From positions 62,001 to 113,339 of the forward strand of contig MU006105.1 of assembly GCA_010093705.1 (NCBI GenBank): DNA of 51,339 bases, in the 5' to 3' direction. The position numbers were made by a program, and so were the translations under genes. Below are positions 3,544 to 48,350 of the stretch, one piece after another. The DNA comes from Patellaria atrata CBS 101060. Lineage: Eukaryota. The number at the start of each line of letters is the position of its first letter. Position 1 is the first letter of the stretch. The notes below the pieces were generated by a model. That model did no database searches and was not told the origin of the DNA. It was given only the letters and a program-made list of their open reading frames with translations.

Positions 3544-6500
3544 ATTAATAATATTAAATATATAGAAATATATATATATATATAATATTAAAATATTTAA
3601 TAAAGAATTAAGATTAAAGAATTAAAGTATAAATATTTAATAAATTAAATCTTATATATTAAATTATAAAATAATAATAATAATTTAAATAAAAGTTTTA
3701 AAATTAAAAATTAATTAAACTTAAATTTAATATTAATATAATTATTAAAAAATAATAATTAAATTTTATATTAAAAGTAAAAGATTATTTAATCTTTCGA
3801 TAAATATAATATAAAAAGAATAATTATTTATATTATAAATAATAGAAAATTATAATAAAATTTAAAAATTAAGATTTTATATATAAATATTTATTTAAAA
3901 GTAAATATTAAATAAAAGAATATAAAATCTATAAAAATAAAACGAGAATATTTAAAAAAAATTAAAAACTTAAATTATTAATAAATAATTATAAAAAGTA
4001 TAATAGTTTTAATTATATAGATAAATTTAAATATAAATAATACTATTAAATATTAATCTATATAAGATATATAATAATAATAATATAAAAAAAACTATAA
4101 ATATAATATAGATTATTAATATTATAAAAGTTTAAAGAAAAAGTTTTATAAAAAAAAATATTTTTATAAAAGATAAAAATATTTTAAAATAATAAAGAAA
4201 TATTTAAATATATTATTAAATATAATATATAAAATTTTAAATAATATATAATAAAAAATATATAGTATAATTATTATATAATATAAAAATAAAAAATAGA
4301 AATTAAAAATAATTTTAATTATAATATAATTATTAAATAAAATTATTAAGAGTTTAAATATTATAATAATATATTATAATATTAATTCTATATTTTCTAT
4401 ATTAAATATTTAGTTTATTTATAAAAGATCTTTATTAAATTAGACGCGGAAAAGTTCTTTAAACGTTAATTAATTAAATAAAAAATAATTAGGCTAAGAT
4501 TTAATAAAATAGAACTATTATATATAAATATTTAATTTATAATATTATTATTTCTTAATTTAATCTTTATATTTAGTAGTTAATAATAGAGATAATTAAA
4601 ATATAATTATTATAATTATATTATATTATTATACTAGATTAAGTTTATCTTTAACAGCCTTTAAAAAGGCGATATAATATTTTAACTAGAGCACGATATT
4701 AGTTTAGCTAATAAACGATTATCGAACTAATTAAAAATTTATAAGTAATTAAACTTTATTAATAATAAGATATTTAATATTTAAAAATATTAATATTAAT
4801 AATAATAATAATTTAATACTTAAAAGAGATTAGAATTAATAAATATAAATTACTTAAAGAAGTAAATATTATAGTAAACTAAATAAAATAGTTAAATCTT
4901 TAATAATTTTAGTAAAGTAAACGGATAATAAATTAACTATAAATTTAGAAGTAGAGAATAATATTAAATTAAAAAAAAAAGGAAAAATATATTAATATAA
5001 ATTAATATTAAAAGTAATTAACTAGTAGATTACTAATAATATTTTAGAAATAGATTTATAAAATCTACTAAAAGAAATTCTTAAAATAATAGAAAAAGAG
5101 AAACCTTTTAAATATATCGCTATTATAGATAATTAAAACGCTAATATAATCGATAAAGCGAAAAAATAAGTAACTAAAAATCTAAACTAATTTATAATAA
5201 AGTATCTTTATATAAAAGTAAAGTTTATAACTTAAAAGATATAATTTAAAAAGATAATAAATCTTATTAATAAAATAATACTTAATTTATAGTTAAAACT
5301 ATAAATATACTAAATAAATAAAGAAGCTATAAAATATCTTTAGAATAAAATTAATAACTTAAAAAGATAGATTAAATAGTCTAAACTAAACTAAAGAAGT
5401 ATCCGATTTAATAATAAATTTAATAATAAAGAATTATTAGTATTATATAATTATAATAATTAAGTTAGAATAGTTAACTTAATTAAAAGCTTTAGAAGTA
5501 AAGGCGATAATAAGATAAAGAAATTCTCTAATTTATTAAAATTAATCGATAGTAAGAAGTTAATCTATAAAAAGTAAAAAAGTAAGATAAATAATAAACT
5601 CTATATTAATAATAATTAATTCTAAAATAAAAGAGTAAAAACTACCTATATTAAGATATAAATTAGTGGTAAAATAGTTAAATATATATATCTTTTCTTA
5701 AAATTAGAGAAGGACGATATAATCTTAATAAAGCTAATAAAATTTCTAGATTAAATTTATAAAGATTTAAATAAACGACTAAAAGTTAAAGATAAATTAA
5801 AAAAGTTAAAATAAAACTATTTAATAGATTTTCTAAAGTTCTAGTCTATATTTATCTAATTAACTAATAAAGCTAGATTATTATATAATTAATAGAAAGA
5901 AGAACTTTATAATAGACTTTATAATAATTTAAAACTAATAATAATAAAAGTTATAAATAACGATAAAATTAGCTTCTAGAAGTACTATAATAAAGCTATA
6001 ATATAAATATAAAAGTTAAAAAGATTAGGTAAAGCTAATAAGGTCTATAAAAAGAGTTAAAAATATAGTAAATTAACTAGAATAACTTCCACCTTAATAA
6101 TAATAAATAGAACTTTATATTAATTAAAGAGTAAAGAAACTATCTTATTTATAATACTATAAGTAATAGAGTAAACTATAATTATTTAGAAGTTTACGGA
6201 TAACTACTTTAACTATAATAAGGCTAGATATAAAGCGTTAGAATACTAGAAACTAAAGAAAATAATTAAAGTAAAGTTAGTCTAGAAAGATAAATATTAA
6301 AGCTTAAAATTTAATTTAGAATTAAATTCGAAAAACGAGAAATTTTAAATAAAGACTCTATATTAGAGCTAATAATAGAAGTATTAATAATATTAATTAA
6401 TAATTTAGTATTAAAAAAGCTATTCACGATATTATATTAAATCTCGAAGAATAGAATTATAATATAGCTTAAAGCCTTAATTAATATTAAAGTTTAAAAG

Positions 6501-9500: not shown

Positions 9501-11657
9501 TAGTTTACTAAAATCACTACTAATTAAAGATAAATATTAGTAATATATTATCTTCGACTTTAAATCGTTTCTTAAGAATACGCACGGATTTAAAATAACG
9601 TTTATAGTAGTAAATCGACTAGGAAAAAGAGCGATTTCACTCCTCTATATTAAAGATATCTCGGTTAAAGTAGCTATAAAACTATACTATAAATATATAT
9701 AATAGATATACGATATATTAAAGATAATAATATTAGACTATAATCTATAATTTATTTCTATATTTATAAATAAGCTTTATAAATTAACGAAAATAAAATA
9801 GAAGCTATCTATAACTTATCACGTATAGATAAATAGAGATATAAAGATTATTAACTAGTATATAAATCTATAACTTTAGCTCTTTATAAATTATTATTAA
9901 AGTAATTAATTAAAGTTATTATTTATAATAAACTTTATTTAAACTATATTAATCTATAAATTAATAGGTATTTTCCCTTATAAATTAAAATTTAGTTATT
10001 AACCACGAATATATTTCGACTAGTAAAAGCGGATAAATCTCGATATATATAAAATAGTTTAAGAAAAGATAAATAGAGAGAAAGCTTAATTATTCGCGAA
10101 ATATACCCACGACGTCGTTAAATAGACGAGGAATAATCTAGAAAAGATATAAATAATATAGATAAAATTAACTAATAAGTATTAAAGAGAATTAGATTTT
10201 AGATTAAAAGATTATATCTTTATTTTATATAAAAGCTAAATATTAGATAGGCTAAGTATTAAACTAGACTATTAGAATATAGATTTATATAAAATAATAA
10301 AAATAAAGAAGTATTTTTATATAATCAACTTACCTATTAATATAAAGATATTAAATATATTCTATATAAATAAGCTTTATAAAGTACCGATAAACTTATT
10401 ACTTAGATAATAATTAAAATCACTACCGCTAATCGAAATAGACGGTGAGCTTAAATATAAAATAGATAAAATCTTAGTAAGCTATATCTTTTATAATAAA
10501 TTATAATATAAAGTAAATTAGATTAAATATAATCTTAATAAGATATAATATCTAGCTTATAATTTTATCGAAGTACTATATAAGCTCGAAGAATTTTATA
10601 ATTAAAGACTAACTAATACTAAATTATTAGTCTAACTTAAAGAATAGCTCTAAGCCTTTAAATCTAATATAGAAGTAAAACTATATAATAATAATAATAT
10701 AGCCGAAAAGAAGAGGTTTATATAAATTTTAAGACGTTATAAATAGATAATAGATTATATTATAGAATATTACTAATATTATTATAGAAATTAGAGCCGA
10801 TTTCTACTATTAAAGAGAAAGTAATATAATAATATATTATAATACTAATTCCGTATTTTCTATATTAAGTATTTAGTTTATTTATAAAAGATTTTTATTA
10901 AGTTAAACGTGGAAAAAATCTCTAAGTGTTAATTAGTTAAATAGAAGATAGTTAAGCTAAGGCTTAATAAGATAAGACTATTATATATAGATATTTAGTC
11001 TATAATATTATTATTTCTTAATTTAATCTCTATACTTAGTAGTTAGTAATAGAGATAGTTAAAATACGATTATTATAGCTATATTATATTATTATAAATA
11101 TAAAGAATATTATAAAGACCTATATTATAATAAATATAATAGATTATATTAGATTAAATATATAAAACTTAATTATTTAATATATAATTATATAAAAAAT
11201 TACTAAATTATTTAAAATAAAAATAATCGAAAAATATAACTTTTAAATTTTTTAAAATCTTATAAAATAATAATAAAACGTTTTAAATAAATATTATTAT
11301 ATATAATAAAAGAATAATAATATTAATCGATAATAATAATAATAATTTATTTATTTTATTTTAATAAATAAAAGAGAAAAATATATTTTATATAAAATTT
11401 AAGAATTTAATCTTATTATAATTAAAAAATTATAAAAAAATAAAATATAAATAAAATTTAATTAACTTTAAAATTATATTAATAAAAGTTAATATATAAA
11501 AGAAGATAATTATTTAATATATTTTTATAATTAATTTAGAAAATATAGATATAATTTTAAAGATAAATTAATTATAAATAATAAATTTAAATATTAATTA
11601 AAAGATAAGAAATATCTAAATTAATTAAATATTTTATAAAAAAATAAAGTTAAATAA
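3544..11657 (+). mobile_element. Family B internal fragment (gag C-terminus to protease) at 3544-4361 and 11097-11657, split by family A copy 3
   Basis: Aligns, almost entirely by C>T/G>A changes, to the reverse complement of ~40780-39400 of the better-preserved family B copy. The sequence is continuous across the insertion with TSD AATAT. Confidence 0.82.
4362..11096 (+). mobile_element. Full-length RIP-inactivated Ty3/Gypsy chromovirus, family A copy 3 (6.7 kb)
   Basis: 272-bp LTRs at 4362-4633 and 10825-11096, TSD AATAT, and a PPT before the 3' LTR. De-RIP reading gives the RT motif AYIDDILIY (~7860-7890) and chromodomain YEVDKILAS...YKVSWIGYDPDETWYP (~10455-10555). Confidence 0.93.
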
Positions 11658-13548
11658 TATAATAATATAATATAACTATAGTAATTATATTTTAACTATC
11701 TTTATTACTAACTATTAAGTATAAAGATTAAATTAAGAAATAATAATATTATAGGCTAAATATTTATATATAATAGTTCTATCTTATTAAGTCTTAACTC
11801 GACTATCTTCCGTTTAATTAATTAGCGTTTAGAGATCTTTTCTATATTTAATCTAATAAAGATTTCTTATAAATAAATTAAACACTTAATATAGAAAATA
11901 TAGAATTAGTATCGTAATATATTATTATATTACCCTCTCTTTAATAATAGAAATCGACCCTAATTTCTATAGTAATATTAATAGCGTTTTATAACGCGAT
12001 TTATTATCTATTTACGACGTTTTAAAATCTATATAAGCTCTTTCTTTTTAGCTATATTATTATTATTATATAGCTTTATTTCTATCTTAGATTTAAAGGT
12101 TTAAAGCTATTCTTTAAGTTAGACTAATAGTCTAATATCGATTAATCTTTAATCGTGGAATTCTTCGAGCTTATATAATACTCCGATAAAGTTATAAGCT
12201 AAATATTATATCTCGTTAAAGTCGTATCTAATTTAACTTACTTTATACTATAACTTACCGCGAAAGATATAGCTTACTAAGATCTTATCTACTTTATATT
12301 TAGACTTACTATCTATTTTAATTAGCGGTAGTAGTTCTAACTATTATCTAGATAATAGATTTATCGATACTTTACGAAGCTTATCTATATAAAATATATT
12401 TAATATCTTTATATTAATGAATAAATTAATTATATAAGAGTGCCTCTTTATTTTTATTATTTTATATAGACCTATATTTTAATAGTTTAGTTTAATACTC
12501 GACTTATCTAATATTTAACCTTTATATAAGATAAAGACGTAATCTTCTAATCTAAAGTTTAGTTCTTTCTAATACTTATTAATTAACTTTACTTATATTA
12601 TTTATACCTTTTCTAAATTATTCCTCGCCTATTTAATAGTATTATAGATATATTTCGTGAATAGTTAAGCTTTCTTTTTATTTATTTTTTCTTAGATTAT
12701 CTTATATATATTAAGATCTATCTACTTTTATTAATTAAAATATATTTATAGTTAGTAACTAAATTCTAACTTATAAAGAAAAATATCTATCGATTTATAA
12801 ATTAATATAGCCTAAGTAAAGTCTATTATAAATAATAGTTTTAATTAATTACTTTAATAATAGTTTATAAAGAGTTAAAGTTATAGATTTATATATTAAT
12901 TAATAATCTCTATATCTTTATTTATCTATAAGTAGTAAATTATAAATAGCTTCTATTTTATTTTTATTAGTTTATAAAGCTTATTTATAAATATAAAAAT
13001 AAATTATAAATTATAGTCTAATATCGTTATCTTTAATATATTATATATCTATTATATATATTTATAGTATAGCTTTACGATTATCTTAGCCGAAATATCT
13101 TTAATATAAAAAAGTAAAATTACTCTCTTTTTTAGTTAATTTATTATTATAAATATTATTTTAAATCTATATATATCCTTAAAGAACGATTTAAAGTCGA
13201 AGATAATATATTACTAATATTTATCTTCGATTAATAATAATTTTAGTAAATTAGGGATTTTATCTCTTAATATATATATCTAACGATAAATATAATAGTT
13301 CTAGATATATCTATCTATATTAACTATTAATTTAAGCTAGTAATATTATATTTAAATTAGTTCTTTTATCTTCTTAATTTCTAGATATTCTATAATTAGT
13401 GCGTTATATATATTTTATATTAAATATATTTTAAGGTTATTTATATCTAAGATTATAAGTCTATTAAATTTAATAAGTAAACTATTCTATAATTTTTAAT
13501 ATCTCTTTTTAGCTTTAACTTATTTTTAATATATTAATAAAGAGTTAT
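11658..13548 (-). mobile_element. Family A copy 4, 3' fragment (3' LTR 11658-11929, PPT, integrase)
   Basis: Complete 272-bp LTR followed by TTACCCTCTCTTT and the reverse complement of ~9205-10824. Homology ends abruptly near 13548. Confidence 0.88.
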
Positions 13549-15916
13549 TTTTTATTAAAATTTAATTAAAATATAAATTTTATTAATATAAAATTTAATA
13601 ATATTTATTAAATTATTAATTTTATTAATTAAAAGATTAATTTAATTAAATTATTAATTATTAAAGAAATATTCTTTAATTTATATATAAATAAATATAA
13701 TTTAAAGTATTTTTTAAATATTAAAATAAAATTATTTTAATAAATTATAAATTAAATAAAAAATAAATATAATAAAAATATATATTAATTAAATAATATA
13801 AATAAAATAAAAAAGTCTATTATTTTTTATATAATTATAAAAATCTTTTTTATTAAAGAATAATTTAAAGTTAACTTTTATTATTTTTTAATTAATTTAG
13901 TAATAATAATATATAATTTTTAATTAAAATAATAACTTTTCTATTTATTTTTATTATTATTATATATAAATTTATTAAAAATATAAAAGAGAATTTTAAA
14001 AAATATTTATTAATTATTATTTATTATTAAATAAATAATAAAGTTTTTAAATTTAATAAAATATATTTCTCGATTTTAAATTAATTAATTATTAATTAAA
14101 TAAAAAAGAAAAATAAGATTTTAATAAAAAAATTTTAAAAGTTAATTAAAATAATTATTATTTTTATTAATTTATTATTAATTTTATTATTTATAAATTT
14201 ATTTATTATTTTAAAAAATAAAATTATATATAAATTAAATTTATTATATTTTATTTTTTAAATTTTAATTAATAATATTATTTTTATAAAATTATTTTAT
14301 TTTTCTTTTTAAGATTTTCTTCTAAATTTAAAGATATATAAAAAAAGTTTATTTTAAATAAATAAAAAAAAAATCTATAAATTATTAAATAATAAATATT
14401 TTTAATTATTATTAGATTTTTAATATTTTAAATAAAATATTTATAATATATAAAAGTTAAAAATATAATAAATTAAAATTAAAATTAATAATAAAATAAT
14501 AAATAATTATTTATTATTAAATATTTAATATATTTATTATTATTAAATTTATTATTTTAAATAAAATTAAAATTAATTTTATAATAATAATTAAATTTAT
14601 ATTTTTCTTTAAAAATATATATTTTATTAATTTAAAACTTTAAATATTATAGAATATTTTATAAAAAGTATTTTAATAATAAATATTCTATAATTATTAT
14701 TAAAAATAAATATATAATTTAAATATATATTATTCTTTATTAATTTAATAATAATTAAAATTAATATAAATATAATATTATTTAAATTTATATATAATAT
14801 AAAATGATTTATTTTAAATAATTAATTAATAATTAAATATATATTTTTTTAAATATATTCTTTAATATTTATATTTATATTAAAAAAAAGTATTATAAAA
14901 AAAATATTTAAAAATTAAATTTTTAATTAAATTATTAAATTTTTTAAGATAAAAAATAAATAAAATACTTTATTATAAATATTTAAAAATTATATAAATT
15001 AAATTAATATTATAATATTTTTATTAAATAGTTAAATTATAATATTAATATTAGATAATTATATTATTAAATTTTATAACTTAAAGATAAAAATAAACTT
15101 TAATATATTTAAAAATTATAAAAAATAAATTAAAATTATAATATTTTTATTAAATAATTAAATTATAATATTAATATTAAATAATTATAATATTAAACTT
15201 TAAAACTTAAAGTTAAAAATAGNNNNNNNNNNNNNNNNNNNNNNNNNNNNNNNNNNNNNNNNNNNNNNNNNNNNNNNNNNNNNNNNNNNNNNNNNNNNNN
15301 NNNNNNNNNNNNNNNNNNNNNNATTATATAATTATATTATTAAATTTTAAGATTTAAAGATAAAAATAGATTTTAATATATTTAAAAATTATATAAATTT
15401 AATTAAAATTATAATATTCTCGTTAAATAATTAAATTATAATATTAAAATTAAATAATTATATTATTAAATTTTAAAATTTAAAGATAAAAATAAATCTT
15501 AATATATTTAAAGATTATATAAATTAAATTAATATTATAATATTTTTATTAAATAATTAAATTATAATATTAAAATTATATAATTATATTATTAAATTTA
15601 AAAGTTTTAAAATAAAAATATATTAAAATATTATCTATATAAATAAAGATATTAATTATTTTATATTCTTTTTAAAAAAATTTTATTTAAATTTAAATTA
15701 AAGAAAAATTTATTTTAATTCTATTAATTTTAATTTATATTATAATAAATATATTTATTTAATTTTTTTATTTAATAAAATTAAATATATAATAATTAAA
15801 TAAAAAAATTTATTTAATTTTCTTTAAATTTTTAAATAATTATAATTAATTTTTAAAATTATCTTTTTATATTAAATTATAAATTAAATTTTATTATTTT
15901 TTTTAAATTAAAATAG
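13549..15916 (+). pseudogene. RIP-destroyed NACHT-WD40 (HET-E/NWD-like NLR) gene; N-terminus missing, internal deletion in NACHT
   Basis: Reversing only C>T/G>A gives, in order: KLPIAEGASFDS..CLPDTRVELL (13640-13740), WLNGMxGTGKSTISRTVA...GQLGASF (13786-13878), PLFIFAATVCRF, LHSVL..VRLFHLSFRDFLL, YACRYWVHHL, DAKRFIL..APLQIYSSALIFAP..W..LLQTLEGH. Then come 126-bp WD repeats and a WLPPDFR..LALGHESG C-terminus ending in TAG at 15914-15916. Confidence 0.85.
14979..15600 (+). repeat. 126-bp (42-codon) tandem repeat encoding WD40 units; assembly gap 15223-15322 inside the array
   Basis: ATTTAAAAATTATA recurs at 14981 and 15107. At least 4 units are visible; the de-RIP unit is [34 protein letters not shown]. 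Unmutated TTC TCG (FS) survives at ~15417. Confidence 0.85.
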
Positions 15917-17756: not shown

Positions 17757-18533
17757 NNNNNNNNNNNNNNNNNNNNNNNNNNNNNNNNNNNNNNNNNNNN
17801 NNNNNNNNNNNNNNNNNNNNNNNNNNNNNNNNNNNNNNNNNNNNNNNNNNNNNNNNNNNNNNNNNNNNNNNNNNNNNNNNNNNNNNTAATAATAATAATT
17901 TAATACTTAAAAAAGATTAAAATTAATAAATATAAATTATTTAAAAAAGTAAATATTATAGTAAATTAAATAAAATAGTTAAATTTTTAATAATTTTAAT
18001 AAAATAAATAAATAATAAACTAATTATAAATTTAAAAATAGAGAATAATATGAAATTAAAAGAAAAAGAAAAAATATATTAATATAAATTAATATTAAAA
18101 ATAATTAATTAATAAATTATTAATAATATTTTAAAAATAAATTTATAAAATTTATTAAAAGAAATTCTCGAAATAATAAAAGAAAAGAAATCTTTTAAAT
18201 ATACTATTATTATAAATAATTAAAATATTAATATAATCGATAAAATAAAAAAATAAATAACTAAAAATTTAGATTAATTTATAATAAAGTATCTTTATAT
18301 AAAAATAAAGTTTATAATTTAAAAGATATAATTTAGAAAAATAGTAAATCTTATTAATAAGATAATATTTAACTTATAATTAAAGTTATAAATATATTAA
18401 ATAAATAAAAAAGCTATAAAATACTTTTAAGATAAAATTAATAACCTAAAAAAATAAATTAAATAATTTAAATTAAATTAAAAAAATATTCGATTTAATA
18501 ATAAATTTAATAATAAAGAATTATTAATATTAT

Positions 18534-21500
18534 TATTATAATAGAAGTCTATATTTATTAAAATAAAACTAAATAAGTTTAGAAAAACGCCTAACTTTTT
18601 ATTTAATATAGTTAACTATAAAGATAGATTTAATAAAATAATAGAATATATATAATAAAGATACTTTAAGTTAACGGTATAACTTATTAACTTCTTAACT
18701 TTAGGTAATATTTATAATAAGATAAGACGTACTATATAGAAATAGTATAATAAATAAAGTTAAATTTAAAACTATAATATTTAAATTTATAGATAAGATT
18801 AATAGTAAAAATAACTATAAAGAATTTAAATATATAAGAGAAAGACTATTCTTAAATATTCTTATTCTTTATAATTAATTTAGTTATTTATATTTTTAAT
18901 TATTCTAGTCGTTCTAATTATTTAATTATTTAGTTATTTTTTATAACTAAAATATCTAAATATTTAAACGTCTAAATCACGTGACTCGTTATTACTCGTT
19001 TTATCTATAATTCTCTTAAATAGTATTCTTTTCTTCCCCTCACTTATTATTTATACGTTTCTATAATTTATAGTTATAATATTATCCTCTCTTTTTTTAA
19101 CTTTTATCTTAAGAGTTTATTTCTTTTACTTAAATATATAATAAATATATCGCCTATTTATTAAATTATACGTACCTCTTTTCTTTTTCTTTTAAAATAT
19201 TAAAAGCTAAACTCTTTCTAATCTATTATTATTATTATACTATCTATATTACTTTATATAATTATCCTATATTAATTTTTTATTTCATTTATTATCGTTC
19301 TTTTTATTTTTATATTATCGATATTCTCTTTAGTTTCTATTCTAAGTGTCTCGCTCGTGGTTTAAAATATAATCTCGTGGTAATATAAAAGGATTAAGAT
19401 AAGCTTAATACTTTAAAAGTTTAAACTTATTTTAAGTTAATCGTTATTAAAAATAATAAGGAATTTACCCTTAATTTTAAGAAATAAGTCTATATTTAAA
19501 TAAATATTTAAATAAAGATTATTTATATTTATATCTACTATTTTTATAAATAACTTTATTCTCTTAAAGAGAAAAAGTTTAAGATATTTTATTATAAGTT
19601 TAGTTCTATTAAAAAGTTTAAAATTTTAAAGTAAGTAATTAAAGAATAATAAGTTTCCTTAATTATTTCTTTTTTCTCTATTATTATATCTCTTTCTAGT
19701 TAATCTAGTTTAGATTTCTCTATTTTTAAGAGTCTAGAATTTCCTAATTTTAGTGATAAAATTATTTAAGTTTTTAATTATAATTTATTAAGTATTTAAA
19801 TAGTTTCTATATATTATTTATATATTTATAGCCTTTCTATTTCACTAAATATTTATACTAACTATTTACTTATTATAGATTTAGGATTTATTTTATCTTA
19901 TAAATATCTTCTTTTTTAAGTTTTATAAATTATATTTAAAGTTTAATATTAATATATACTTATTTTAAAAGTAATATATAGAAAATCAAATATATCTTTA
20001 TTTTTTATAGTAATTTTAATTTATAATTAACTTTTTCTTTAATCTATTTAATTTTAAAAGAGTTAATTTTCTTATAATCTAGTTTTTTATTAAGTCGTTT
20101 TATTTTAAAATTTCTTTATAATAAGTAAACTTTATTTCTTTTTTTAAAGATTAGTTCTAACGATTTATACTAATTATTATACTTTATAGCCCTTATTATC
20201 TAGAAAGCTATATCTCGTAATAATTATATATATAATTCTTTAATTTATTTAACTTTTAATATTACTTCTTATAAAATACTTTAAACTATTCTTAACTCAC
20301 GATATACTTTAAACTTAAAGCTATAGTTTATATAGAAAAGTGAAACCTTTATAATATTAGATTTCACGTTATTATATATAAATTATACTATTAATAGTAG
20401 CTTTACTTAATTATTTTACTAATAATTTATATAATTACGTAAATATTATTTTAGAGATTAATTTATTCTCTTAGTTTAACTATCTATTTATAGATAGAAG
20501 CTCGTTAATAGTTTATAATTTACCCTTAAACTCTATATAAAAGTTTACTAAAACGTTAATTTAAATAGTTTATCTTTATCTAAGATAATCTTTTTTAATA
20601 TTTAATAGTTCACTAATATTATTTTTATTATTAATATTACTATTTATAATATTATTATTATCGTCTTCGCTAGTATAAAATAGGTGAATTTTATTAGTCT
20701 TTCTATAATAATTAATATCGTGTTATATTTTACTTTTATTACTAAATCTTTAGATCCTAGTAAATTTATAATAAAATCTATTATTATTAAGTTCTATACT
20801 CGCTTTAATAGTTTAATATATTATATTTATTTATAAAATATATATTTCGCGCTTTTATTTCGTATATAATTATTATATTCCGAGATAACTTATTTTACTA
20901 TATTTCTTATCTTTAAAAAATAGTAATTTCTTAGAATTCTTTTTAAGATTTTATTAATACCTTAATAATTATATATTAGTGTTTCGTGAATTTCTCTAAT
21001 AAGAGTCTTTTATAGTATTATTAATATATATATAAGTTTATTATATAGCTATATTTCTTAAACTATTTATATTACTTTAAAATTATTATCCTTTTAGAAC
21101 TTCTTTATTATATTATCTTTTTAATAAATATCACGAATTTATTATTTCCTTATAAATTCGATTATTAATATTATAGTTAATTTTAGCTAATTATAGATAA
21201 TCGCGTTATTTTCTTTCTTTAATATTATATTATATACTAATTTCGTTTTTTTTAAATAGTTAAATCTTCTATTTATAATATTAGTTAATTTATTATCGAC
21301 TTTTAGTTTATAGAATATTTTAAAGTTAAAAGATATAAATATTTCTATTTATCTTATTTATTTTCGATTAAGTTTCTTCGTTATTAGGAAATTTATAAGA
21401 TTCTAATAATTTAATTAAATCTTTATAATAAATTTAAGTTCTTTAAAATATAATCTCTATTATTTAAATATATTAATAATTACTAATAATTTCTTATTAT

Positions 21501-24500
21501 ATATATTATAGTTTAGTTCTACTATTATAAACTTTCGTGAATAGAAGACTATTAAGTATAGTTATTCTTTTTAATTTAGTTAACTAATATATACTTTTAA
21601 TATATAATTTAATATATTAGTTTCGAGTATAATCTCTTTCTCTAGGTTAAATATAATTAAGATTAATATTATAATAAACTTTTTTTTAAGTTTATTAAAT
21701 ACTTTTTAAGTCTTTTCTATTTAAATAAAGGTATTATCCTTCTTTATTAGCTCTAATAATAGCGATATTACCTTAAAATACCCTTATATAAACTTCTTAT
21801 AATAGTTCGCGAAATTTAGAAATAATTATATATTCTTTATACTTTTTAATATAGATTATTCTACTATTATTTTTATCTTTTTTAAGTCTATTTATACTCC
21901 TTCTATAATAATAATAAAGTCTAGAAATTCTATTTTCTTAATATAAAATTTATATTTATTTAAGTATATTAAGAGCTTTTTCTTTTATAACTTCTTTAGA
22001 ACTTTTTTAATATACTCCCTATATTCTTTTAATATATTATTAGTATATATTAATATATTATCTAGATATACTATTATAAATACGTCTAAGTACTTTTTTA
22101 ATATATAATTAATCACTATTTAGAATATTATTAGAGCGTTAATTAAGTTAAAAAGTATTACTATATATTTATATAGTTTAAACTTTATTTTTATAATTAT
22201 CTTTCACTCTTTATCTTCTTTTATATAGATTTAGTAATATTCTTCTCGAATATCGAATTTTATAAACTATTTTACTTCTTATAATTTATTCTAGATTTTT
22301 AAGATTAAGGGTAATAAGTATTTATTTTTTATTATAATATTATTAAACTATTTATAATTAATATATAATTTTAATCTACTATTCTTTTTTAATATAAATA
22401 GAATTAGTGAAACTATTAACCTTTTACTAGATTATATATATCTCTTTTCTAAGTTAATATAGATATATTCTTTAAATACTATATATTATTCTTATAATAA
22501 TAGATAAATAAAATTAAATCGTAACTTTATATTCTTCTTTAATATTATTTTATAATCTCACGTTTAATAATTTAGAAATATAGTCGTTATATCTTTCTTA
22601 AATAAATCTTTAAACTTATTATACTTTTTAAATATTTTAGATTTTTTAAAAATCTTCTTAGCGTCTATTTTCTTAAACTATACTACTTTTATACTTTTAG
22701 ATTTATTTCTATAAATCTTTATTATTTTATAATATAAAATATATTTTATAAATATATTAATATTTATTTATTTAATATATTTTATTCACTTAACTTTATT
22801 TTTTTATAAGATATTTTAATTAATTTAGATATTTCTTATCTTCTAATTAATATTTAAATTTATTATTTATAATTAGTCTATTTTTAAAATTATATCTATA
22901 TCTTCTAAATTAATTATAGAGATATATTAAATAATTATTTTCTCTTATATATTAACTTCTACTAATATAGTTCTAAAATTAATTAGACCTTATTTATATT
23001 CTATTCCTTTATTATTTTCTAGTTATAATAGGACTAACTTTTTAAGTTTTATATAAAGTATACTTTTTTTTTTTACTTATTAAGATAAAATAAATAAATT
23101 AGTGGCGTTACTATTAACTAATATTATTATTCTTTTACTATATATAGTAATATCTACTTAAAGCGTTTTATCGTTACTTTATAAAGTTTTAAGAAATTTA
23201 AAAGTTATACTTCTTAATTATTTTTATCTTAAATAGCTTAGTAATTTTTTATATAGCTATATATTAAATAACTAGATTTTATATATATAGTTTAATATAA
23301 CTTATTATATTAATTATAATATAGACTTTTATAATACTCTTTATACTTTAATTCTCGACACTTTCACTTAATAATTATATTATAATTTAAGTTACTTTTA
23401 ATTTCTACTTTTTATCTCTACGCGGTATAATAATTATACTATATTCCTTTAACCGCGTATTATCTAAAGTCTATTATATTATATTTAATAATATATTTCA
23501 GTATTTTCTTATTATTTTAAAATACTTTTATCTTTTATAAAAATACTTTTCTTTTATAGAACTTTTCTTCTAAATCTTTATAATATTAATAGTCTATACT
23601 ATATTTATAATCTTTCTATATAGCTACTATATATCCCGTATAAATTAATATTTAATAATATTATTTATATTTAAGTTTATTTATATAATTAAAACTATTA
23701 TATTTTTTATAATTATCTATTAGTGGTTTAAATTCTTAGTTTTTTTTAAGTATTTTTATTTCGTTTTTATAGATTTTATACTCTTTTACTTAATACTCGC
23801 TTTTCGATAAATATATATATATAAAGTCTTAATTTTTAAACTTTATTATAGTCTTCTATTATTTATAGTATAAATAGTTATTCTTTTTATATTATATTTA
23901 TTAAAAGGTTAGATAATCTTCTACTTTTAATATAAAATTTAATTATTATTCTTTAATAATAATATTAATATTAAATTTAGGTTTAATCGATTTTTAATCT
24001 TAAAATTCTCGTTTAAGCTAATATTATTATTTTATAATTTAGTATATAAGACTTAGTTTATTAAATATTTATACTTTAATTCTTTAATCTTAATTCTATA
24101 TTAAGTATTTTAATATTATATATATACTTATATTTCTATATATCTAATATTATTAGTTATCTAAATATTATTAAAGTATTTCCTTTTTTAGCTAATTTTC
24201 TACTATTAAAAATAATATTAATAATCTATTTATCTTTATTTAATAGAGTAATAATATTTCTTTAATCTCTTTTTCTTCTAGCGATAAGACTAGTAACGAT
24301 AATATTAAATATATAACTCTAAGTTATATATATTAGTTATATCGCGAGGATAATTATATCTTTTATAGATAATCTCTTTTAAAATATCTTATTTCTTTAT
24401 ATTATAAATATATTTTATTTATAAAGTATTCTTTTTTTTCTTAAATAAATTATTATTATTTCTTTAACTTCTTTTATTTTATCTATTATAATTAATTAAA

Positions 24501-25874
24501 GTTTATTAAATCTTTTTAATCTTATTTATTTATAATTTTTATTACTTTCTTTTTATATTTAATTATAATATTCTTTTATTCTCTTCTTTTTTATTTATAT
24601 TTATATAATCTATTATCTATTTTAACTACTAAGATTACTATATTCTATATAATTATTAATCTTTTATAATAAATTTACTCGTCCTTTATTTCCTCCTTTA
24701 AATCTTAATAAAAGATTATTATTAATAGTTTATTAAATTAATCTAATATTAATATTATCTATTAAAATATAATTATATATTTCGAAATTAATTTCTTTTA
24801 TTTAAGTCTTTAAAGCTTTCTTTTAACTATTTATTACTCGTTAACTTCTCTAAAAATATTTTTAAATATTTTTTTAAACTTTAGAAATAATATAAAAATT
24901 TTATTTATTTTATCTTCTTAATCTTCCTTATTATTTTTAAGATAATCTTATATAATAGATTTAAATTATTCTAAAGCGTCTCCTTTAAGATATATTAATA
25001 TATTAAATATATATTTATTATTATCTATTAGCTCTATTTTTTTATAATAAATTCTTATTTAAATTAAGAATTCTTTTAACTCGTTCTATTTACTATTATA
25101 TAATATAGATTCTTTAATTTTCGTAGTTCACTTTTATAGTAAGAGTAATTATATAATAAATTATTTAAATTAATTCTTAAATTCTTAAATTATTCTTTTA
25201 TTTTTAAATTTATTAATATATTTATATAACGCTTAAATATATTCTTTATCCGTCTTTATATTAATTATAGCTAATAATATTATATTTAGATCTATTATAC
25301 ACTTTCTTACTATATAATAATTATAATATTATAATAGGAGTTTATATTTATTAAAATAGAATTAAATAAATCTAGAAACACGCCTAACTTTTTATTTAAT
25401 ATAGTTAACTATAAAAGTAGGTTTAATAAAGTGATAAAATATATATAATAAAAGTATTTTAAGTTAACGATATAATTTATTAACTCTTTAACTTTAGATA
25501 ATACTTATAATAAGATAAGATATATTATATAAAAATAATATAATAAGTGAAATTAAGTTTAAAACTATAATATTTAAATTTATAAGTAAGATTAATAATA
25601 AAAATAATTATAAAGAATCTAAATATATAAAGAAAAAATTATTCTTAAATATTTTTATTCTTTATAATTAATTTAATTATTTATACTTTTAATTATTCTA
25701 GTTATTCTAATTATTTAGTTATTTAATTATTTTCTACGACTAAAATATCTAAATATCTAAATATTTAAATTATATAATTTATTATTATTTATTTTATTTA
25801 TAATTCTTTTAAATAATATTTCTTTCTTTCTTTTACTTATTATCTATATATTCCTATAATTTATAGTTATAATA
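18534..25874 (-). mobile_element. Full-length RIP-inactivated Ty3/Gypsy family B copy 1 (7.3 kb)
   Basis: 548-bp LTRs at 18534-19081 and 25327-25874, TSD ATTAT, and PPT complement TTATCCTCTCTTTTTTT after 19081. Colinear with 35230-42557. Confidence 0.92.
19197..19799 (+). pseudogene. RIP-degenerated antisense Zn2Cys6/coiled-coil ORF of family B copy 1 (200 codons)
   Basis: Same position and frame as 35854-36423. The six Cys positions are TAT/TGT with x2-x6-x8-x2-x6 spacing, and the middle region is 33 nt longer in frame. Confidence 0.75.
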
Positions 25875-28800
25875 ATTATATAATTATAATAATTAAGTTA
25901 GAATAATTAATTTAACTAAAAATTTTAAAAGTAAAGATAATAATAAAATAAAAAAATTCTCTAATCTATTAAAATTAATCGATAATAAGAAATTAATCTA
26001 TAAAAAATAAAAAAGTAAAATAAATAATAAACTTTATATTAATAGTAATTAATTTTAAGATAAAAAAATAAAGACTATTTATATTAAAATATAAATTAAA
26101 GAAAAATAATATAATTTTAATAAAATTAATAAGATTTTTAAACTAAATTTATAAAGATTTAAATAGATAATTAAAAGTTAAAGATAAATTAAAAAAGTTA
26201 AAATAAGATTATTTAATAAACTTTTTAAAGTTTTAGTTTATATTTATTTAATTAACTAATAAAGTTAAATTATTATATAATTAGTAAAAAAAGAAACTTT
26301 ATAATAAATTTTATAATAATTTAAAGTTAATAATAATAGAAATTATAGATAATAATAAAATTAGCTTTTAAAAATATTATAATAAAATTATAATATAAAT
26401 ATAAGAGTTAAAAAGATTAAATAAAGTTAATAAAGTTTATAAAAAAAATTAAAAATATAATAAATTAATTAAAATAACTTTTATTTTAATAATAATAAAT
26501 AAAACTTTATATTAATTAAAAAATAAAGAAATTACTTTATCTATAATATTATAAATAATAGAAGTTTATAGATAATTACTTTAATTATAATAAGATTAAA
26601 TATAAAGTATTAAAATATTAAAGATTAAAGAAAATAATTAAAATAAAATTAATCTAGAAAAATAAATATTAAAGTTTAAAGTCTAATTTAAAGTTAAATT
26701 TAGAAAATAAGAAACTTTAAATAAAGACTTTATATTAAAGTTAATAATAAAAGTATTAATAATATTAATTAATAATTTAATATTAAAAAAGCTATTTATA
26801 ATATTATATTAAATTTTAAAAAATAAAATTATAATATAATTTAAAGTTTTAATTAATATTAAAGTTTAAAAATATACTTTATTAAATAAAAGATAATTAT
26901 CTACTTTAAAATAATATCTTAAAATTAAAATTAGAAAGATAGATTAAAAGATTAAAATTAATATCTTTAATAATTTAAAGATAATATTAATTAATTAAAT
27001 ATTTAAGATAAGCTTTATAATTAAAGAATAAAGATAATTAATATTAATTATAATAATAGATATAAACTATAATAATATATTTATAAATAAAAAGTAATTC
27101 TTTAAAACTAATAATTTATTTAATTATAAATATTATTAAATTATTTAATTAAAATAAATTATTATAATTAAAGATTAATAACGAGATATTATAATTTTAA
27201 AGAATAATTTATAAATTTAAATTAATTTATAATATTAATTTAATATAAAATAACGAGATAAAATTATTAATAAATAAGAATATAATTAATAAAAAGTATT
27301 AATTAATTAAAAAAAGAAATTATAATTATTTTAATAAAAATAACTAAGTTTATAGACTAAAAATATTAGCTTTAATCTTTAAAAGATAAAATTAAAATTA
27401 TCGAATTTAATAAAAAGAAAAATATTAAAACTTTTTAAAAAATTAAAGTTAAAGTTAAGTAAATAAATTAATATTACTAAAATTTATATAAATATTTACT
27501 TAATTAATAGAAAAAACTATTTAAAAAATATAAAATATAAAAATATTATTATAAATATTATAAATTTATATAAAATTAACTTTTTAATATAAAATTAACT
27601 TTTAAAAAATAAAAACTCTTTAAATAAAAATAAAGATATTTATAAAATAATAATCTATAAAAAGTTATTTAAAAAATACTATTATTTAATTTATATATTC
27701 TTAAAATCTATATTTAATAAATTATTATCGTTTAAAGAAAATATAAATTATAATATAATATTAGATTAAGATAATAATTTTACTATTAATTTTTTATATA
27801 ATATATTTATTAAATATTTATAATTAATAAAGAATTATTTAAAGAAATATCTTTAAAAGAGATTTATTATTTTAAACGAAATATTATATATATCTTTAAT
27901 ATTATTTATTAAAAAGTTAAAGGAAAATTAAAGATTTTATATTAATTATAAAAAGTTAAATAATATTATTAAAAAGAATAAATATCTATTATCTTTAATT
28001 AAGGAAATATTAATATATTTTTAATAAATAAAAATATTTATAAAACTCGATATAAAATAAGTATTTTATTAAATTTAGATAAAAAAATTAATTAAAAATT
28101 TTATTATTTTCTAAATAAAATATAAATTATTTAAATATAAAATATTACTTTTTAAATTATATAATAATTTAATCTTATTTTAATAGTTTATTAATAAAAT
28201 ATTCTTTTAATATTTAAATAACTTTTATATAATATATATTAATAATATATTAATTTATTTTAAATATTTATTAAAGTATTAAATCTATATTATAAAAGTA
28301 TTAAAAATACTAGTTAAAACTAATTTATAAACTAATATTAAAAAAAGTAAATTTTATATAATAAAGATAAAATTTCTTAGTTTTATTATTAATATTAATA
28401 AAATAATAATAAATTTAAAAAAGATTAAAATAGTTTAAAATTAAAAGTTATTAATAAATATAAAAAAATCTTATTATTTAATAAATTTTATAACTTTTAT
28501 CGAAAGTTTCTAGAGAAATTTAAACGAGTTATATAACTATTAATAATATAAATATAAAAAAAGGTTTAAAAATTATTTAAATAAAAAGAAGAAAAGATAT
28601 TTAAAAAAATAAAAAAGTTAATTCTATTAAATTAAATATTAATATATTATAACTTTTTATTTAAAATAAAAGTTAAATTTAATTATAATAATAAAGTTAT
28701 TATAATAATTATATTATAAAATATATTTAAAGATTAATTATCTTTTAAATTAAAATATTATCGAAAATATAATTAAAATATAAAATTTATAATAAAAAAA

Positions 28801-31800
28801 TATTAATTATAATAAAAGTATTAACTAAATAAAAAAATATATTAATAAAATTATAATAAATTTCTTTTATTATAATTATTAATTATAAAATATTAAAATA
28901 CTTTATTATAAAATAGTTATTTAATATTAAATAAACTTAATAAAGTAAAACTCTTTTTAATTTCTATTTTTAAATTATATATTAACCTAAAATTTAAAAT
29001 ATTATAGTAAATATATTTTTTTATAAATAAAAAGATTTAAAAATAATAAAAGATAAAAATATTATAATATAAACTTAAATATTAATTAATTTAAATATAA
29101 TAATAATATCTTTTTAACTTTTAATAAAATAATAATTACTATTTAAAAAGATATTTTAAAATAATAAAAAATATATAATCTTTAAAAAGAGAATAATAAA
29201 AAATATACTTTAAAATTAAGATTTAAGACTTAGATAATAATAATTAAAATAATAATAATTAAGTTTTTATAAAAAATAAAAAGAGTTAAATTTTAAAATT
29301 AAAAGTTTATAATAATTAAAATTTTAAAAGAAAGAAATAATATATTAAAAAAATATATTAATTTTAACTTTAAATTAAAGTTTATACTTATTTACTCTAT
29401 AATTCTTATTATAATTAAAAAAGAAAAGAAAGTTAAATATAAAATAAAAGAAAAAGAAAATATATTTATAAATTTAAAATAATATATTTAAAATAAATTT
29501 AATTAAAAATAAAAGCTATTAATAATATATTTATTAATAAATTAAATATTAGAAATAAATTAAAAATGTAACTTTTTATTAATATATTAAAAGTAAATTA
29601 AAATTAAAAAAAGATATTAAAAATTATAAAATAATTTATTTATTAAATTTAATAAATTTATAATTTTAAATATAGATAATCTTAAAATATATTTAATATA
29701 AGATATATATAATATATTAATTATAGAATATTTAGAAATTAAGAAGATAAAAAAACTAATTTAAATATAATATTATTAGTTTAAATTAATAGTTAATATA
29801 AATAAATATATTTAAAATTATTATATCTATTATTAAATATATATATTAAAAGATAAAACTTTTAATTTACTAAAATTATTATTAATTAAAAATAAATATT
29901 AGTAATATATTATTTTTAACTTTAAATTATTTTTTAAAGATATATATAAATTTAAAATAATATTTATAATAGTAAATTAATTAGAAAAAAAAGTAATTTT
30001 ATTTTTCTATATTAAAGATATCTTAATTAAAGTAGTTATAAAGCTATATTATAAATATATATAGTAAATATATAATATATTAAAGATAATAATATTAAAT
30101 TATAATTTATAATTTATTTTTATATTTATAAATAAACTTTATAAATTAATAAAAATAAAATAAAAGTTATTTATAATTTATTATTTATAGATAAATAAAA
30201 ATATAAAGATTATTAATTAATATATAAATTTATAGCTTTAATTCTTTATAAATTATTATTAAAGTAATTAATTAAAATTATTATTTATAATAAATTTTAT
30301 TTAAATTATATTAATTTATAAATTAATAGATATTTTCTTTTATAAATTAAAATTTAATTATTAACTATAAATATATTTTAATTAATAAAAGTAAATAAAT
30401 TTTAATATATATAAGATAATTTAAAAAAAAATAAATAAAGAGAAAATTTAACTATTTATAAAATATATTTATAATATTATTAAATAGATAAAAAATAATC
30501 TAGAAAAAATATAAATAATATAAATAAAATTAATTAATAAGTATTAAAGAAAACTAAATTTTAGATTAAAAGATTATATCTTTATTTTATATAAAGATTT
30601 AATATTAAATAAATTAAATATTAAATTAAACTTTTAAAATATAAATTTATATAAAATAATAAAAATAAAAAAGTATTTTTATATAATTAATTTATTTATT
30701 AATATAAAGATATTAAATATATTTTATATAAATAGATTTTATAAAGTATTAATAGACTTATTATTTAGATAATAGTTAAAATTATTATTATTAATCGAAA
30801 TAGATAATAAGTCTAAATATAAAATAAATAAAATTTTAATAAATTATATCTTTTATAATAAATTATAGTATAAAGTAAATTAAATTAAATATAACTTTAA
30901 TAAAATATAATATTTAATTTATAACTTTATTAAAATATTATATAAACTTAAAAAATTTTATAATTAGAAATTAATTAATATTAAACTATTAATTTAATTT
31001 AAAGAATAACTTTAAATCTTTAAATTTAAAATAAAAAATAAAACTATATAATAATAATATTATTATTAAAAGAAAGAAGTCTATATAAATTTTAAAATAT
31101 TATAAATAAATAATAAATTATATTATAAAATATTATTAATATTATTATAAAAATTAAGGCTAATTTCTACTATTAAAAAGAAGATAATATAATAATATAT
31201 TATAATATTAATTTTATATTTTTTATATTAAATATTTAATTTATTTATAAAAGATTTTTATTAAATTAAATATAAAAAAAATCTCTAAATATTAATTAAT
31301 TAAATAAAAGATAGTTAAATTAAAATTTAATAAAATAAAACTATTATATATAAATATTTAATTTATAATATTATTATTTTTTAACTTAATTTTTATACTT
31401 AATAATTAATAATAAAGATAATTAAAATATAATTATTATAATTATATTATATTATTATAATAATATTATATTATTATAATAATATATTTTTTAATTTTTA
31501 TTTAAAATTAAATTTTAATAAATAGTTTTATAATAAAAAATTATTTATAAAATAAAATTAACTATTTTAAATTAAAAAAATAGTTAAATTTAATATAATA
31601 ATAAATTTTATATTCTTTTTAAAATATAAAGAAAATAATAATTTTTAAATAAATAATTATTTTTTTTAATAAAAAATTTTATCTTTAATTATTAAATTAT
31701 TATTTATAAAATAAATATTAATTTTAAAAATATATAAAAAGTTTAAAAATAATATATATTTTATTTTTTATATTTTTTAATAATAGATTTAATCTTTATA

Positions 31801-35853: not shown

Positions 35854-36423
35854 ATGCCTCGAACTGAATCTCGCGCAGTTCGTCGTCGGCGTCTCGCAGC
35901 CCAAATTGTGTCCTCCGGTCGACTAATGCCCACTCCCTATTCAACCTGTCGCCGTCAGTCTCGCACTTGCCGTCTCGATCTCTCTTCCGGCTTCTGTTCT
36001 AAGTGTGTGGCTCGTGGTTCAAAATGCGACCTTATGGTGACACAAAAGGACTAGGACAAGCTGAACGCTTCGCGATCTGAGCTTCGTCGTAAGCTCGCTG
36101 AGGCGCGAGTTTCCCGTGACAACGCACACGCCCGGATGTTGGAGGCTTTCGCTCGTGAGGAGCGATTAATGCAGCAGCTCCAACTTCTCGATCAGAAGGA
36201 GGGCGAAATGATTCGTCGTGAGCTTGGTTCCATCGAGGAACTTGAGGCTTTGGAGCGAGCAGCCGAAGGGCAGCAAGCTTCCTCGGTCGCTCCTTCTTCC
36301 TCCGCTGTCGTGTCTCCCTCTAGTTGGTCTAGTTTGGATTTCCCTGCCCTCGAGGGTCTAGAATTCCCTGGTTTTGGCGATGAAACTGTTCAAGTTTCTG
36401 ATCGCAGTTCGTCAAGTGCTTGA
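35854..36423 (+). pseudogene. Antisense ORF of the retrotransposon: 189-aa Zn(II)2Cys6 + coiled coil + acidic/Ser tail, one RIP-type stop
   Basis: ORF-track ORFs 35854-36054 and 36136-36423 share a frame and are separated only by TAG at 36052 (from TGG). With TAT>TGT at 35938 the motif reads C-ST-C-RRQSRT-C-RLDLSSGF-C-SK-C-VARGSK-C, fitting CX2CX6CX5-12CX2CX6-8C. Confidence 0.85.
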
Positions 36424-41901: not shown

Positions 41902-42314
41902 CGTGTCTAGGTCTGTTATACGCTTTCCTACTGCGTGGTAGTTATAATGTTATAACGGGAGTCTATACTTATCAAGACAGAACTGGATAAGTCTAGAAAC
42001 GCGCCTGGCTTCTCACTCAACGTGGTCAACCATAAAGGTAGGTTCGGCAAAGTGATAGGATACGTATAACAAAGGCACTTCAAGTTGTCGATACAACTTG
42101 CTGACTCCTTGACTTCAGGTACTGCTCACAATGAGACAAGACGTACTGTATAGAAACAGTGTAACAAGTGAAGTCAAGTTCAAAACCGTAACATCCAAAT
42201 CTATAGGTAAGATTGATGGTAAGAATAACTACGAAGAATCTAAATACATGAGGGAAAGACCGTCCTTAAATATTCCTATCCTCCATAGTCAATTTGGGGT
42301 GCCCACACCCTTTT

Positions 42315-42461
42315 GGACGTGATGGCCGTTCTGGACGTGGATCTCCTTCTACGTCCTTTACGTCCACTGCGTCCATAACCTGGACGTCCTGGACGTGGTG
42401 GACGTGGATCCCCCTTTGCGTCCTTTGCGTCCATTGCGTCCACAGTTTCTAGTCACGTGAC
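42315..42461. promoter_or_regulatory. LTR U3 motif array: 2 x 67-bp unit of 3 GGACG plus 3 inverted CGTCC (9-bp spacing), then palindrome GTCACGTGAC
   Basis: GGACG at 42315, 42324 (GGCCG), 42333, 42382, 42391, 42400. CGTCC at 42352, 42361, 42370, 42419, 42428, 42437. E-box palindrome at 42452-42461. The same array is in the other LTR at ~35597-35743. Confidence 0.75.
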
Positions 42462-42557
42462 CCCTTGTTACTGGTTTCATCCGTGGTTCTCCCGAGTGGT
42501 GTTCCTACTTTCCCCTCACTCGTTGTCTGCATGTTTCTACAACTTGTGGCCGTAACA

Positions 42558-47871: not shown

Positions 47872-48350
47872 TGTTACGGCCACAGGACAACGGGAACGCA
47901 TCACCAGTGGGGTGGTAGTACCAAGTGTCGGAGCGGAACAACCAGCACGGAAGTCACGTGATGTGATCCCAGGTGATCCCATTGATCTCAGTTTTGAGAA
48001 GTGGGATCAGACGGGAGCAGTGGGAGCAACGAGGCCACGTGATGTGATCCCAGGTGATCCCATTGATCCCAGTTTCGAGAAGTGGGATCAGACGGGAGTA
48101 GTGGGAGCAACACCCAGTTATAGCTAGGAAGAAGGAATACTTAAGGACGCTCCTTTACGCATGTATTTAGATTCTTCGTAGTTATTCTTACCATTGATCT
48201 TACCCATAAGATTGGATGTTACGGTTTTAGACTTAACTCTTACTTGTCACTCTATTTCTATACAGTGTTATCTTGCCTCTCTTGTAAGCTGTGTGATTGA
48301 GTTAAGGAGTCAGTAAGTTGCATCGTTAACTTAAAGTACAAGCCTTATAC
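47872..48350 (+). mobile_element. Truncated LTR of a family-B-related element, not obviously RIP-mutated
   Basis: Starts TGTTACGGCCACA like the family B LTR. 48135-48350 aligns to the reverse complement of 42065-42277 (CATGTATTTAGATTCTTCGTAGTTATTCTTACCAT...). It is cut at the LINE poly(T). Confidence 0.88.
47955..48111 (+). repeat. 2 x 76-bp direct repeat (81-bp period) in the U3 of the LTR
   Basis: Units at 47955-48030 and 48036-48111 differ by three C/T changes. Confidence 0.92.

Follow-up and report, generated by a model that had tools for sequence, protein, structure and literature searches.

An antisense Zn2Cys6-type ORF in chromoviruses of Patellaria atrata and its pairing with inverted half-site arrays in the LTR

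Introduction

[quoted passage not shown] For plant ORFs of this type (Grande gene23, RIRE2, Retand TRP28), DNA binding and a regulatory role have been proposed, and gene23 of Grande was shown to have its own promoter and a nuclear location (excerpts of PMC7264820, PMC11963269). The ORF described here has the same position and orientation, whereas the plant proteins, as described in these excerpts, contain other domains, and the plant elements carry tandem arrays in the internal region instead of inverted half-site arrays in U3. In fungi, Boty-like elements from Botrytis cinerea and from Sclerotinia sclerotiorum (Zhao et al. 2011) carry brtn, an antisense extra gene between pol and the 3′ LTR (excerpts of PMC7264820, PMC4227169, PMC8365987). 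Both genes are antisense and occupy the pol-to-3′-LTR interval of a fungal chromodomain-bearing Gypsy element. However, the excerpted citing papers describe no domain, target or LTR array for brtn; the likeness is one of description, and our protein searches for relatives returned no BRTN-named sequence among the matches. BRTN may well be a member of the same family, in which case the gene would be known, and its fold, target and cassette would be new as far as open-licence papers go.

The system closest in logic is VANC of the Arabidopsis VANDAL transposons, whose variants go with element-specific tandem target motifs and for which anti-silencing has been shown (excerpts of PMC5735166). This is a functional analogy only: VANC is likewise element-encoded, with variants paired with element-specific motifs, but it belongs to a plant DNA transposon and the protein is, as far as known, unrelated. 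Regulators acting on their own LTR are also found in vertebrate retroviruses. Foamy virus Tas binds U3 and an internal promoter, and HBZ of HTLV-1, a coiled-coil factor, comes from the 3′ LTR as a spliced antisense product. Here too the analogy with Tas and Tax/HBZ is one of logic, since the folds are unrelated. In open-licence papers and preprints (subscription journals were outside the scope), we found no Zn2Cys6 protein of a fungal LTR element and no such arrays; the excerpts of PMC3248453, PMC10799480 and PMC3145791 contain no mention of such a domain. The locus described here has a probable DNA-binding fold and, within the element itself, a candidate target; alleles and these candidate targets also occur in natural pairs, which makes the question of function directly testable.

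Two chromovirus copies share an antisense ORF

The window, i.e. the whole stretch of 51,339 nt that was analysed, is RIP-shaped DNA of the fungus Patellaria atrata CBS 101060. It contains two copies of a fungal chromovirus (Ty3/Gypsy LTR retrotransposon) with all defining features of the class (Table 1): LTR ends TG..CA, a 5-nt target duplication, a polypurine tract (PPT) and a C-terminal chromodomain, with Retrotrans_gag, RT_RNaseH, Integrase_H2C2, SH3_Tf2-1 and Chromo scoring above the Pfam cut-offs. The antisense ORF starts 112–113 nt inside the 3′ LTR (112 nt in copy 1), and its 3′ part runs into the end of pol.

Table 1. Features of the window discussed in the text; domain rows refer to the ORF of copy 1.
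Feature	Position in window	Strand	Remarks
Chromovirus copy 1	18522-25879	-	LTRs, PPT, gag-pol
3′ LTR, copy 1	18522..19085	-	564 nt; polypurine tract directly inside
U3 half-site array, copy 1	18895..18985	.	GGTCG/CGWCC class, RIP-eroded; closed by E-box-like TCACGTGA at 18977
TATA-like box (putative promoter)	19134..19147	+	about 55 nt upstream of ORF start; common to the two main allele groups
Antisense accessory ORF, copy 1	19197..19799	+	603 nt, 201 codons, 200-residue allele
Zn2Cys6-type cluster	19281..19370	+	C-x2-C-x6-C-x8-C-x2-C-x6-C, codons 29-58
Long helix / coiled coil	19386..19661	+	first part allele-specific, then conserved RRELxSIEE
RRELxSIEE motif	about 19590-19616	+	codons 132-140
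Acidic, Ser/Pro- and Trp/Phe-rich tail	19662..19796	+	activation-domain-like by composition; overlaps end of pol chromodomain
gag-pol, copy 1	19699..25118	-	gag, RT-RNase H, integrase, SH3, chromodomain; RIP-inactivated
5′ LTR, copy 1	25315..25879	-	same array as 3′ LTR, about 25690-25770
Chromovirus copy 2	35230-42557	-	LTRs, PPT, gag-pol
Target-site duplication, copy 2	35225-35229 and 42558-42562		5 nt
Antisense ORF, copy 2	35854..36423	+	570 nt, 190 codons, 189-residue allele; different zinc-cluster allele
5′ LTR, copy 2	41948..42557	-	610 nt
U3 array, copy 2	42315..42441	.	two units, each with three GGACG followed by three CGTCC half-sites at a 9-nt period; forward and reverse sites 37 nt apart
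Cytochrome P450 exons	45119-46641	+	
Solo LTR, same lineage	47872..48337	opposite to copies 1 and 2	third array type
Solo-LTR array	about 47965-48112	.	GCTCCC/GATCCC and GGGATC; distance 38 nt
RNase H-like frame	48647-49588	-	non-LTR type element
536-codon frame	49702-51312	+	no Pfam match

RIP-type mutation has inactivated the ORF of copy 1 (12 stops, start codon lost, 16% G+C); damage to the ORF of copy 2 consists of one stop and one altered Cys codon. The preliminary description, made from the window alone, claimed that both copies carry the same ORF with six Cys codons at equal spacing. In copy 1 these positions (codons 29, 32, 39, 48, 51 and 58) read TAT, TAT, TAT, TAT, TGT and TAT, spaced as in copy 2. 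Taken alone, this pattern is weak evidence because of the 16% G+C, the 12 stops and a background in which 8 of 49 neighbouring codons are also TAY/TGY. The claim was settled in its favour by genome searches, which yielded 36 ORF copies with both ends, namely, a main set of 31 and five further, older copies that had been selected by pol alone. All 186 Cys positions of the 31 copies are TGY/TAY, compared with 119 of 1519 neighbouring codons (7.8%), and little-mutated copies of copy 1's length class (L011, L017) have six true Cys. The reading frame is kept in 30 of the 31. The five older copies all have the ORF, four of them in frame (one 4-nt and one 3-nt insertion were found), with TGY/TAY at 16 of 18 directly scorable Cys positions. 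The ORF is present in 36/36 copies examined, in each case antisense in the aORF-3R position. Uninterrupted frames have lengths of 182, 189 and 198 residues, and lengths of 200 and 211 were seen with one stop. One little-mutated copy is a 100% match to an annotated protein of Patellaria atrata CBS 101060. Public gene models of broken copies (P0007, P0008, P0009 and P0010) skip the stop codons through apparent false introns and are labelled as Zn(2)-C6 or uncharacterised host proteins.

Domain organization and predicted dimer

Zn2Cys6 (Gal4-type) clusters follow the pattern C-x2-C-x6-C-x5..12-C-x2-C-x6..8-C. The spacing 2-6-8-2-6 of the ORF fits this pattern and is found in all uninterrupted copies and, exactly, in 77 of 151 homologues (the best 148 family members plus three own sequences; median length 182). 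The gathering score of Pfam Zn_clus is not reached (20.0 bits versus 21 for an uninterrupted copy), and 19 of 105 homologues reach E ≤ 0.01 with this profile. The AlphaFold2 model, built from 105 sequences and with a pLDDT of 87.9, consists of an N-terminal helix, the cluster, one 81-residue helix and a loose tail. Zn2Cys6 DNA-binding domains occupy the 16 best rows of the Foldseek listing, and the cluster can be superimposed on them with rmsd of 1.2–1.9 Å over 32–35 residues, but all matches are weak and none is significant (E ≥ 0.3, Z ≤ 3.1). Sequence search of solved structures returned generic coiled coils only (E 0.06–0.6).

The protein resembles Gal4, Put3, Hap1, Ppr1 and Pho7 in its six-Cys cluster, whose local fold is predicted to match theirs, and in what comes after it, a putative dimerisation helix and then an acidic tail. 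Unlike these proteins, it is encoded by a retroelement, is about 180–210 residues long, has almost no linker and lacks the middle regulatory region. Gal4-type dimers are parallel, whereas the 80-residue helix is predicted to pair antiparallel; the first loop of the cluster is variable, and the candidate half-sites lie 27–39 bp apart and do not contain CGG. The first loop of Gal4 carries basic CGG-contacting residues. Positions 1–3 of this loop are often R/K in the family, but in most of 76 sequences the Gal4-type basic residue is absent from the fourth position (G in 32, N in 11, S in 10, K in 6). The N-terminal arm is basic; the tail is net acidic in 90 of 94 homologues and contains at least two W/F residues in 92 of them.

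The homodimer model scored 0.52, the best control 0.00, with contacts agreeing in at least 93% and pLDDT of at least 80; this two-copy model was made without an alignment, and coiled-coil dimers are a class that the predictor may pass by memorisation. Of the solved pairs used as reference, 21 of 30 attained the dimer mark, compared with 0 of 23 single chains (17/29 and 0/30 for eukaryotes). Predicted contacts are antiparallel, with residues 27, 30 and 59–62 meeting 112–119 and almost no linker, and the RRELxSIEE region of one chain is packed against the end of the other chain's cluster. Such packing would explain both the conservation of this motif and the helical-step changes of the coil in between. 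Judging from the model, the most likely dimer form is an antiparallel rod with a zinc cluster at each end, and the distance between heads is estimated at about 83–126 Å (1.48 Å per residue). In the Patellaria genome, the sixth Cys and RRELxSIEE are separated by 56, 63, 74 or 85 residues, i.e. by steps of 7 and 11. Among homologues the distance is 56 residues in 26 of 68; for the other 42, the difference from this value is a multiple of 7 in 30 cases and can be composed of 7s and 11s in 37, counted on the 68 of 149 that could be scored (81 were dropped) and on related, thus not independent, sequences.

Divergent alleles on a homogenised backbone

Transversions per site that distinguish the window copies from each other amount to 0.121 in codons 1–66, 0.222 in the coil, 0.005 in codons 129–200 and 0.015 in gag-pol. 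Thus, the surroundings of the zinc cluster differ by changes that RIP cannot produce and the C-termini match, as had been described. The same applies to the coil, which differs in sequence and is 11 codons longer in copy 1: the net difference of 33 nt (603 versus 570 nt), split by the aligner as 11+22 nt, falls inside it. Comparison of the 189 and 182 alleles gives a similar picture: transversions number 22/198 for codons 1–66, 38/132 for the coil, 1/141 for the tail and 3/1122 for the 3′ portion of pol. In the divergent part of the ORF, synonymous sites are near saturation (pS 0.5–0.8) and the edges are sharp. Since synonymous sites have diverged as well and the boundaries are sharp, we conclude that old alleles were exchanged on a homogenised backbone, with no acceleration of the protein rate. 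The suggestion that the ORF diversifies faster than pol is therefore correct as a contrast in divergence but not as a rate of protein change.

Divergence is not confined to the ORF. The 189/182 pair differs in two islands, one comprising the 5′ two thirds of the ORF and the other a stretch of U3 about 190–400 nt upstream of its start. Between and around the islands the sequences are near-identical, with 0–2 transversions in the 190 nt separating array and gene. In the alleles of L058 and L094, each represented by one eroded copy, divergence is continuous between U3 and about codon 160, and near-identity is seen again in the LTR core and at the end of the ORF. In recombinant copies, the commoner head is combined with a coil that resembles the one of the 189 allele but is 7 residues shorter. 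These sequence comparisons show that the U3 array, the putative promoter and the 5′ part of the gene form one cassette that is swapped between subfamilies, with pol and the LTR core being homogenised.

U3 half-site arrays and their pairing with zinc-cluster alleles

Each array unit consists of two to four forward half-sites, a reverse block and an E-box-like site, and adjoins the conserved TATA-like block of the LTR. In the LTR of copy 2, one pentamer occurs 13 times, a count reached in 0 of 300 shuffles; in the same test the figure is 1/300 for L068 and 11/300 for L017, which has a single-unit array. Where spacings are irregular, the forward and the reverse block show them in identical order (9,7; 9,8,8; 9,8; 9,10), so that the distance between any forward site and its reverse counterpart is constant. 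This order appears to match neither an origin as a hairpin, expected to give mirror order, nor simple duplication, expected to give interleaved sites. The forward-to-reverse distance is either 27–28 or 36–39 nt, the two classes being about one DNA turn apart.

Each of the four zinc-cluster alleles is paired with its own inverted half-site array in U3, a relationship that goes beyond the preliminary description. The type of array matches the allele in all 23 scorable copies out of 30, recombinants included: 6/6 copies of one allele have GGACG, 15/15 of the second have the GGTCG class, and two single-copy alleles have another array each. The alleles behind this concordance belong to four lineages, of which two are represented by one eroded copy each; array class was assigned by whole-array scoring, as RIP-tolerant motif counts overlap between the two half-site types. 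A fifth type, GCGAT, is found in two near-identical metagenome loci. The distance class also goes with coil length: 56 residues with 28 nt, 63 with 37–38, 74 with 37 and 85 with 39. Thus short coils have 28 nt and long coils 37–39 nt, including the unrelated L067/L068 (63 residues, 38 nt). Misfits are L017, which combines a 74-residue coil with a 28-nt array, and L058, whose distance may be taken as 27 or 36; arrays with a regular 9-nt period are compatible with 28 as well as with 37. A linear rule, by which distance would be proportional to coil length, was rejected since the values do not fit it.

The LTR core is common to many solo LTRs of this lineage (window 47872–48337 and L073–L082), but their U3 arrays vary; genomic matches number at least 50. 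No ORF was found near the ten solo-LTR loci examined, and no ORF allele was found for the TGGNCA-type array of solo LTRs. The E-box-like TCACGTGA, a candidate host bHLH site, closes nearly every array (window 18977, 35735, 42453 and 47954) and is also found upstream of the gene in metagenome loci L065 and L069. The terminal repeats of the other repeat family in the window, too eroded to count as a control, contain no CG-pentamer array.

A candidate LTR-binding transactivator

Considering fold, cassette and allele pairing together, we find it fairly likely that the ORF encodes an LTR-binding transactivator with its own U3 array as candidate target. The antisense gene would be read from its own promoter just inside the 3′ LTR, as suggested by the TATA-like box and by an intron in relatives. 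We infer that it is expressed and that its product binds zinc and DNA; this would be a minimal transcription factor made of a basic N-terminal helix, a divergent Zn2Cys6 cluster, a coiled coil and an acidic-aromatic tail, and its predicted antiparallel dimer would bind the inverted half-site array in U3 of its own LTR. This array lies upstream of the putative sense promoter in the 5′ LTR and upstream of the putative promoter of the antisense gene in the 3′ LTR. The factor would switch on, or keep unsilenced, transcription of the genomic RNA at the 5′ LTR and that of its own mRNA at the 3′ LTR, and the cassette of regulator and array would pass between subfamilies by recombination. If this is true, these fungal elements would be ‘complex’ in the retroviral sense, and self-activation would bear on their persistence under RIP and silencing.

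A tentative extension based on the dimer model, possible rather than probable, is that the protein acts as a molecular caliper and is encoded by a widespread clade of fungal chromoviruses. The antiparallel dimer would hold two Zn2Cys6 heads 80–125 Å apart and read staggered inverted half-site pairs about 28 or 38 bp apart in U3, with the head setting the half-site and the coil length the distance class; swapping of cassettes would then create orthogonal switches within one genome. A two-headed Zn2Cys6 rod contacting half-sites that are separated by three to four DNA turns would represent a new binding geometry and could provide small orthogonal activators.

A rather unlikely alternative is that the protein is functional without reading the array, acting on proteins, RNA or the integration complex, or as a dominant-negative decoy for host Zn2Cys6 factors, and that the arrays are common U3 enhancers for host factors, quick to change and hitch-hiking with the allele next to them. 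Array and gene are only about 200 nt apart, and linkage alone also predicts their concordance. Besides, the first loop is divergent, the pairing of L017 is a mismatch, an E-box-like host-factor site closes the arrays, and arrays change without change of the cluster: they vary more than the cluster does, pure and hybrid arrays being accompanied by nearly identical clusters (pN 0–0.02). However, at least four unrelated half-site types within one lineage and one host are hard to assign to one host factor. The islands have also stayed coupled even though the 190 nt between them were homogenised (0–2 transversions), and the constant long forward-reverse distances fit a two-headed rod.

It is also unlikely, although the array would still be the target, that the protein acts as an anti-silencing factor or as a repressor or copy-number limiter, in the manner of VANC or HBZ, and not as a plain activator. 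This is in line with the copies being located in RIP-hit AT-rich DNA with most half-sites containing CG, and with the antisense position being shared with HBZ. An antisense promoter of HTLV is mentioned in the excerpts of PMC7264820, and the sequence-specific targets of VANC are tandem repeats that differ between related elements (excerpts of PMC5735166). By contrast, almost every homologue has a tail composed like an acidic activation domain, a TATA-like block is found with the array immediately upstream of it, and similarity searches of the protein found no chromatin enzyme; these points speak against this alternative.

Selection on the antisense frame

That the frame is a by-product of the pol read-through frame or of an antisense RNA function, with no protein selected, is very improbable and largely refuted: the pol frame is open in little-mutated copies, so in-frame indels could be selected on the pol strand, but over the ORF pN exceeds pS in the pol frame and pS far exceeds pN in the antisense frame, the six Cys are kept across hundreds of clusters, and heptad-sized indels and an intron are found in antisense orientation. 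This opposite behaviour of the two frames demonstrates amino-acid selection on the antisense frame. The third positions of this frame hold 16/19, 15/17 and 20/21 of the differences. For codons 1–66, dN/dS is 0.15–0.32 between the two main alleles and 0.01–0.06 within the commoner allele group, as obtained by simple counting on short alignments of nine little-mutated copies. The earlier proposal of selection on the protein is thus supported by the frame being kept in 34 of 36 copies, by dN/dS below 1, by the third-position bias and by length steps of 7 and 11. Positive selection on the protein was ruled out, since dN/dS is below 1.

Conservation confined to the overlap with pol had been put forward as a possible argument against such selection. 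This comparison proved unworkable, because the pol frame of little-mutated copies stays open over the full length of the ORF. It has 0 stops in L008, L015, L016 and L017, where 4.6–7.2 are expected (P of 0.003 or less), and one frame antisense to the gene is stop-free in 5/6 metagenome loci. In these four copies and in metagenome loci L064 and L067–L070, the pol frame runs past the chromodomain through the antisense gene, in L017 as far as a stop inside U3. The read-through frame is under no amino-acid constraint and may limit the length of the genomic RNA's 3′ untranslated part.

Relatives in other ascomycetes

Profile search detected 825 clusters at E ≤ 0.001 and 238 at 1e-10. Named members of the family are from Patellaria, Aureobasidium, Watsoniomyces, Pyricularia, Gaeumannomyces and Coniochaeta, and neighbours in the ESM Atlas are ascomycete clusters without name. 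On sequence grounds, the ORF is likely to be a conserved accessory gene of a clade of ascomycete chromoviruses, although the genomic setting is known for few of the 825 clusters. Out of eight metagenome loci, four have chromodomain-pol directly downstream on the opposite strand. Two others stop short of pol, one of these having gag upstream on the opposite strand; the last two are a locus cut off inside the gene and a false bacterial match. A match in a prokaryote genome (same stretch as L071) was rejected as a false coiled-coil match, and the viral contigs searched contained no relative. Members of this large family currently receive the label of host ‘Zn(2)-C6’ proteins, by which counts of fungal transcription factors are inflated.

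Three metagenome loci from two lineages have a GT-AG intron with a branch motif, located in the Trp codon after the last Cys. Its removal gives Cys6-to-RRELxSIEE distances of 63 and 84, i.e. mode+7 and mode+28. L066/L070 have GC at the donor position, and no frame-restoring acceptor was found in them. Survival of an intron in antisense orientation through reverse transcription would imply a separate, spliced antisense mRNA.

Other features of the elements and the window

Past the zinc knuckle, gag continues for several hundred codons with Cys/His-rich repeats before the protease (L060:717–2609; window 39900–41000). Of the 81 gag-pol transversions between the window copies, 43 fall in 1 kb of pol (window 21500–22499), which, judging from this clustering, is a second mosaic segment, the element being mosaic outside the cassette too. 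The regions 1–14500 and 25900–31500 contain other repeats that are nested and heavily RIP-mutated, with terminal repeats of about 275 nt. In copy 2, G+C is 55% in the ORF (35854–36423) versus 31–34% in pol (36500–39000); allele divergence may have sheltered this antisense ORF from RIP.
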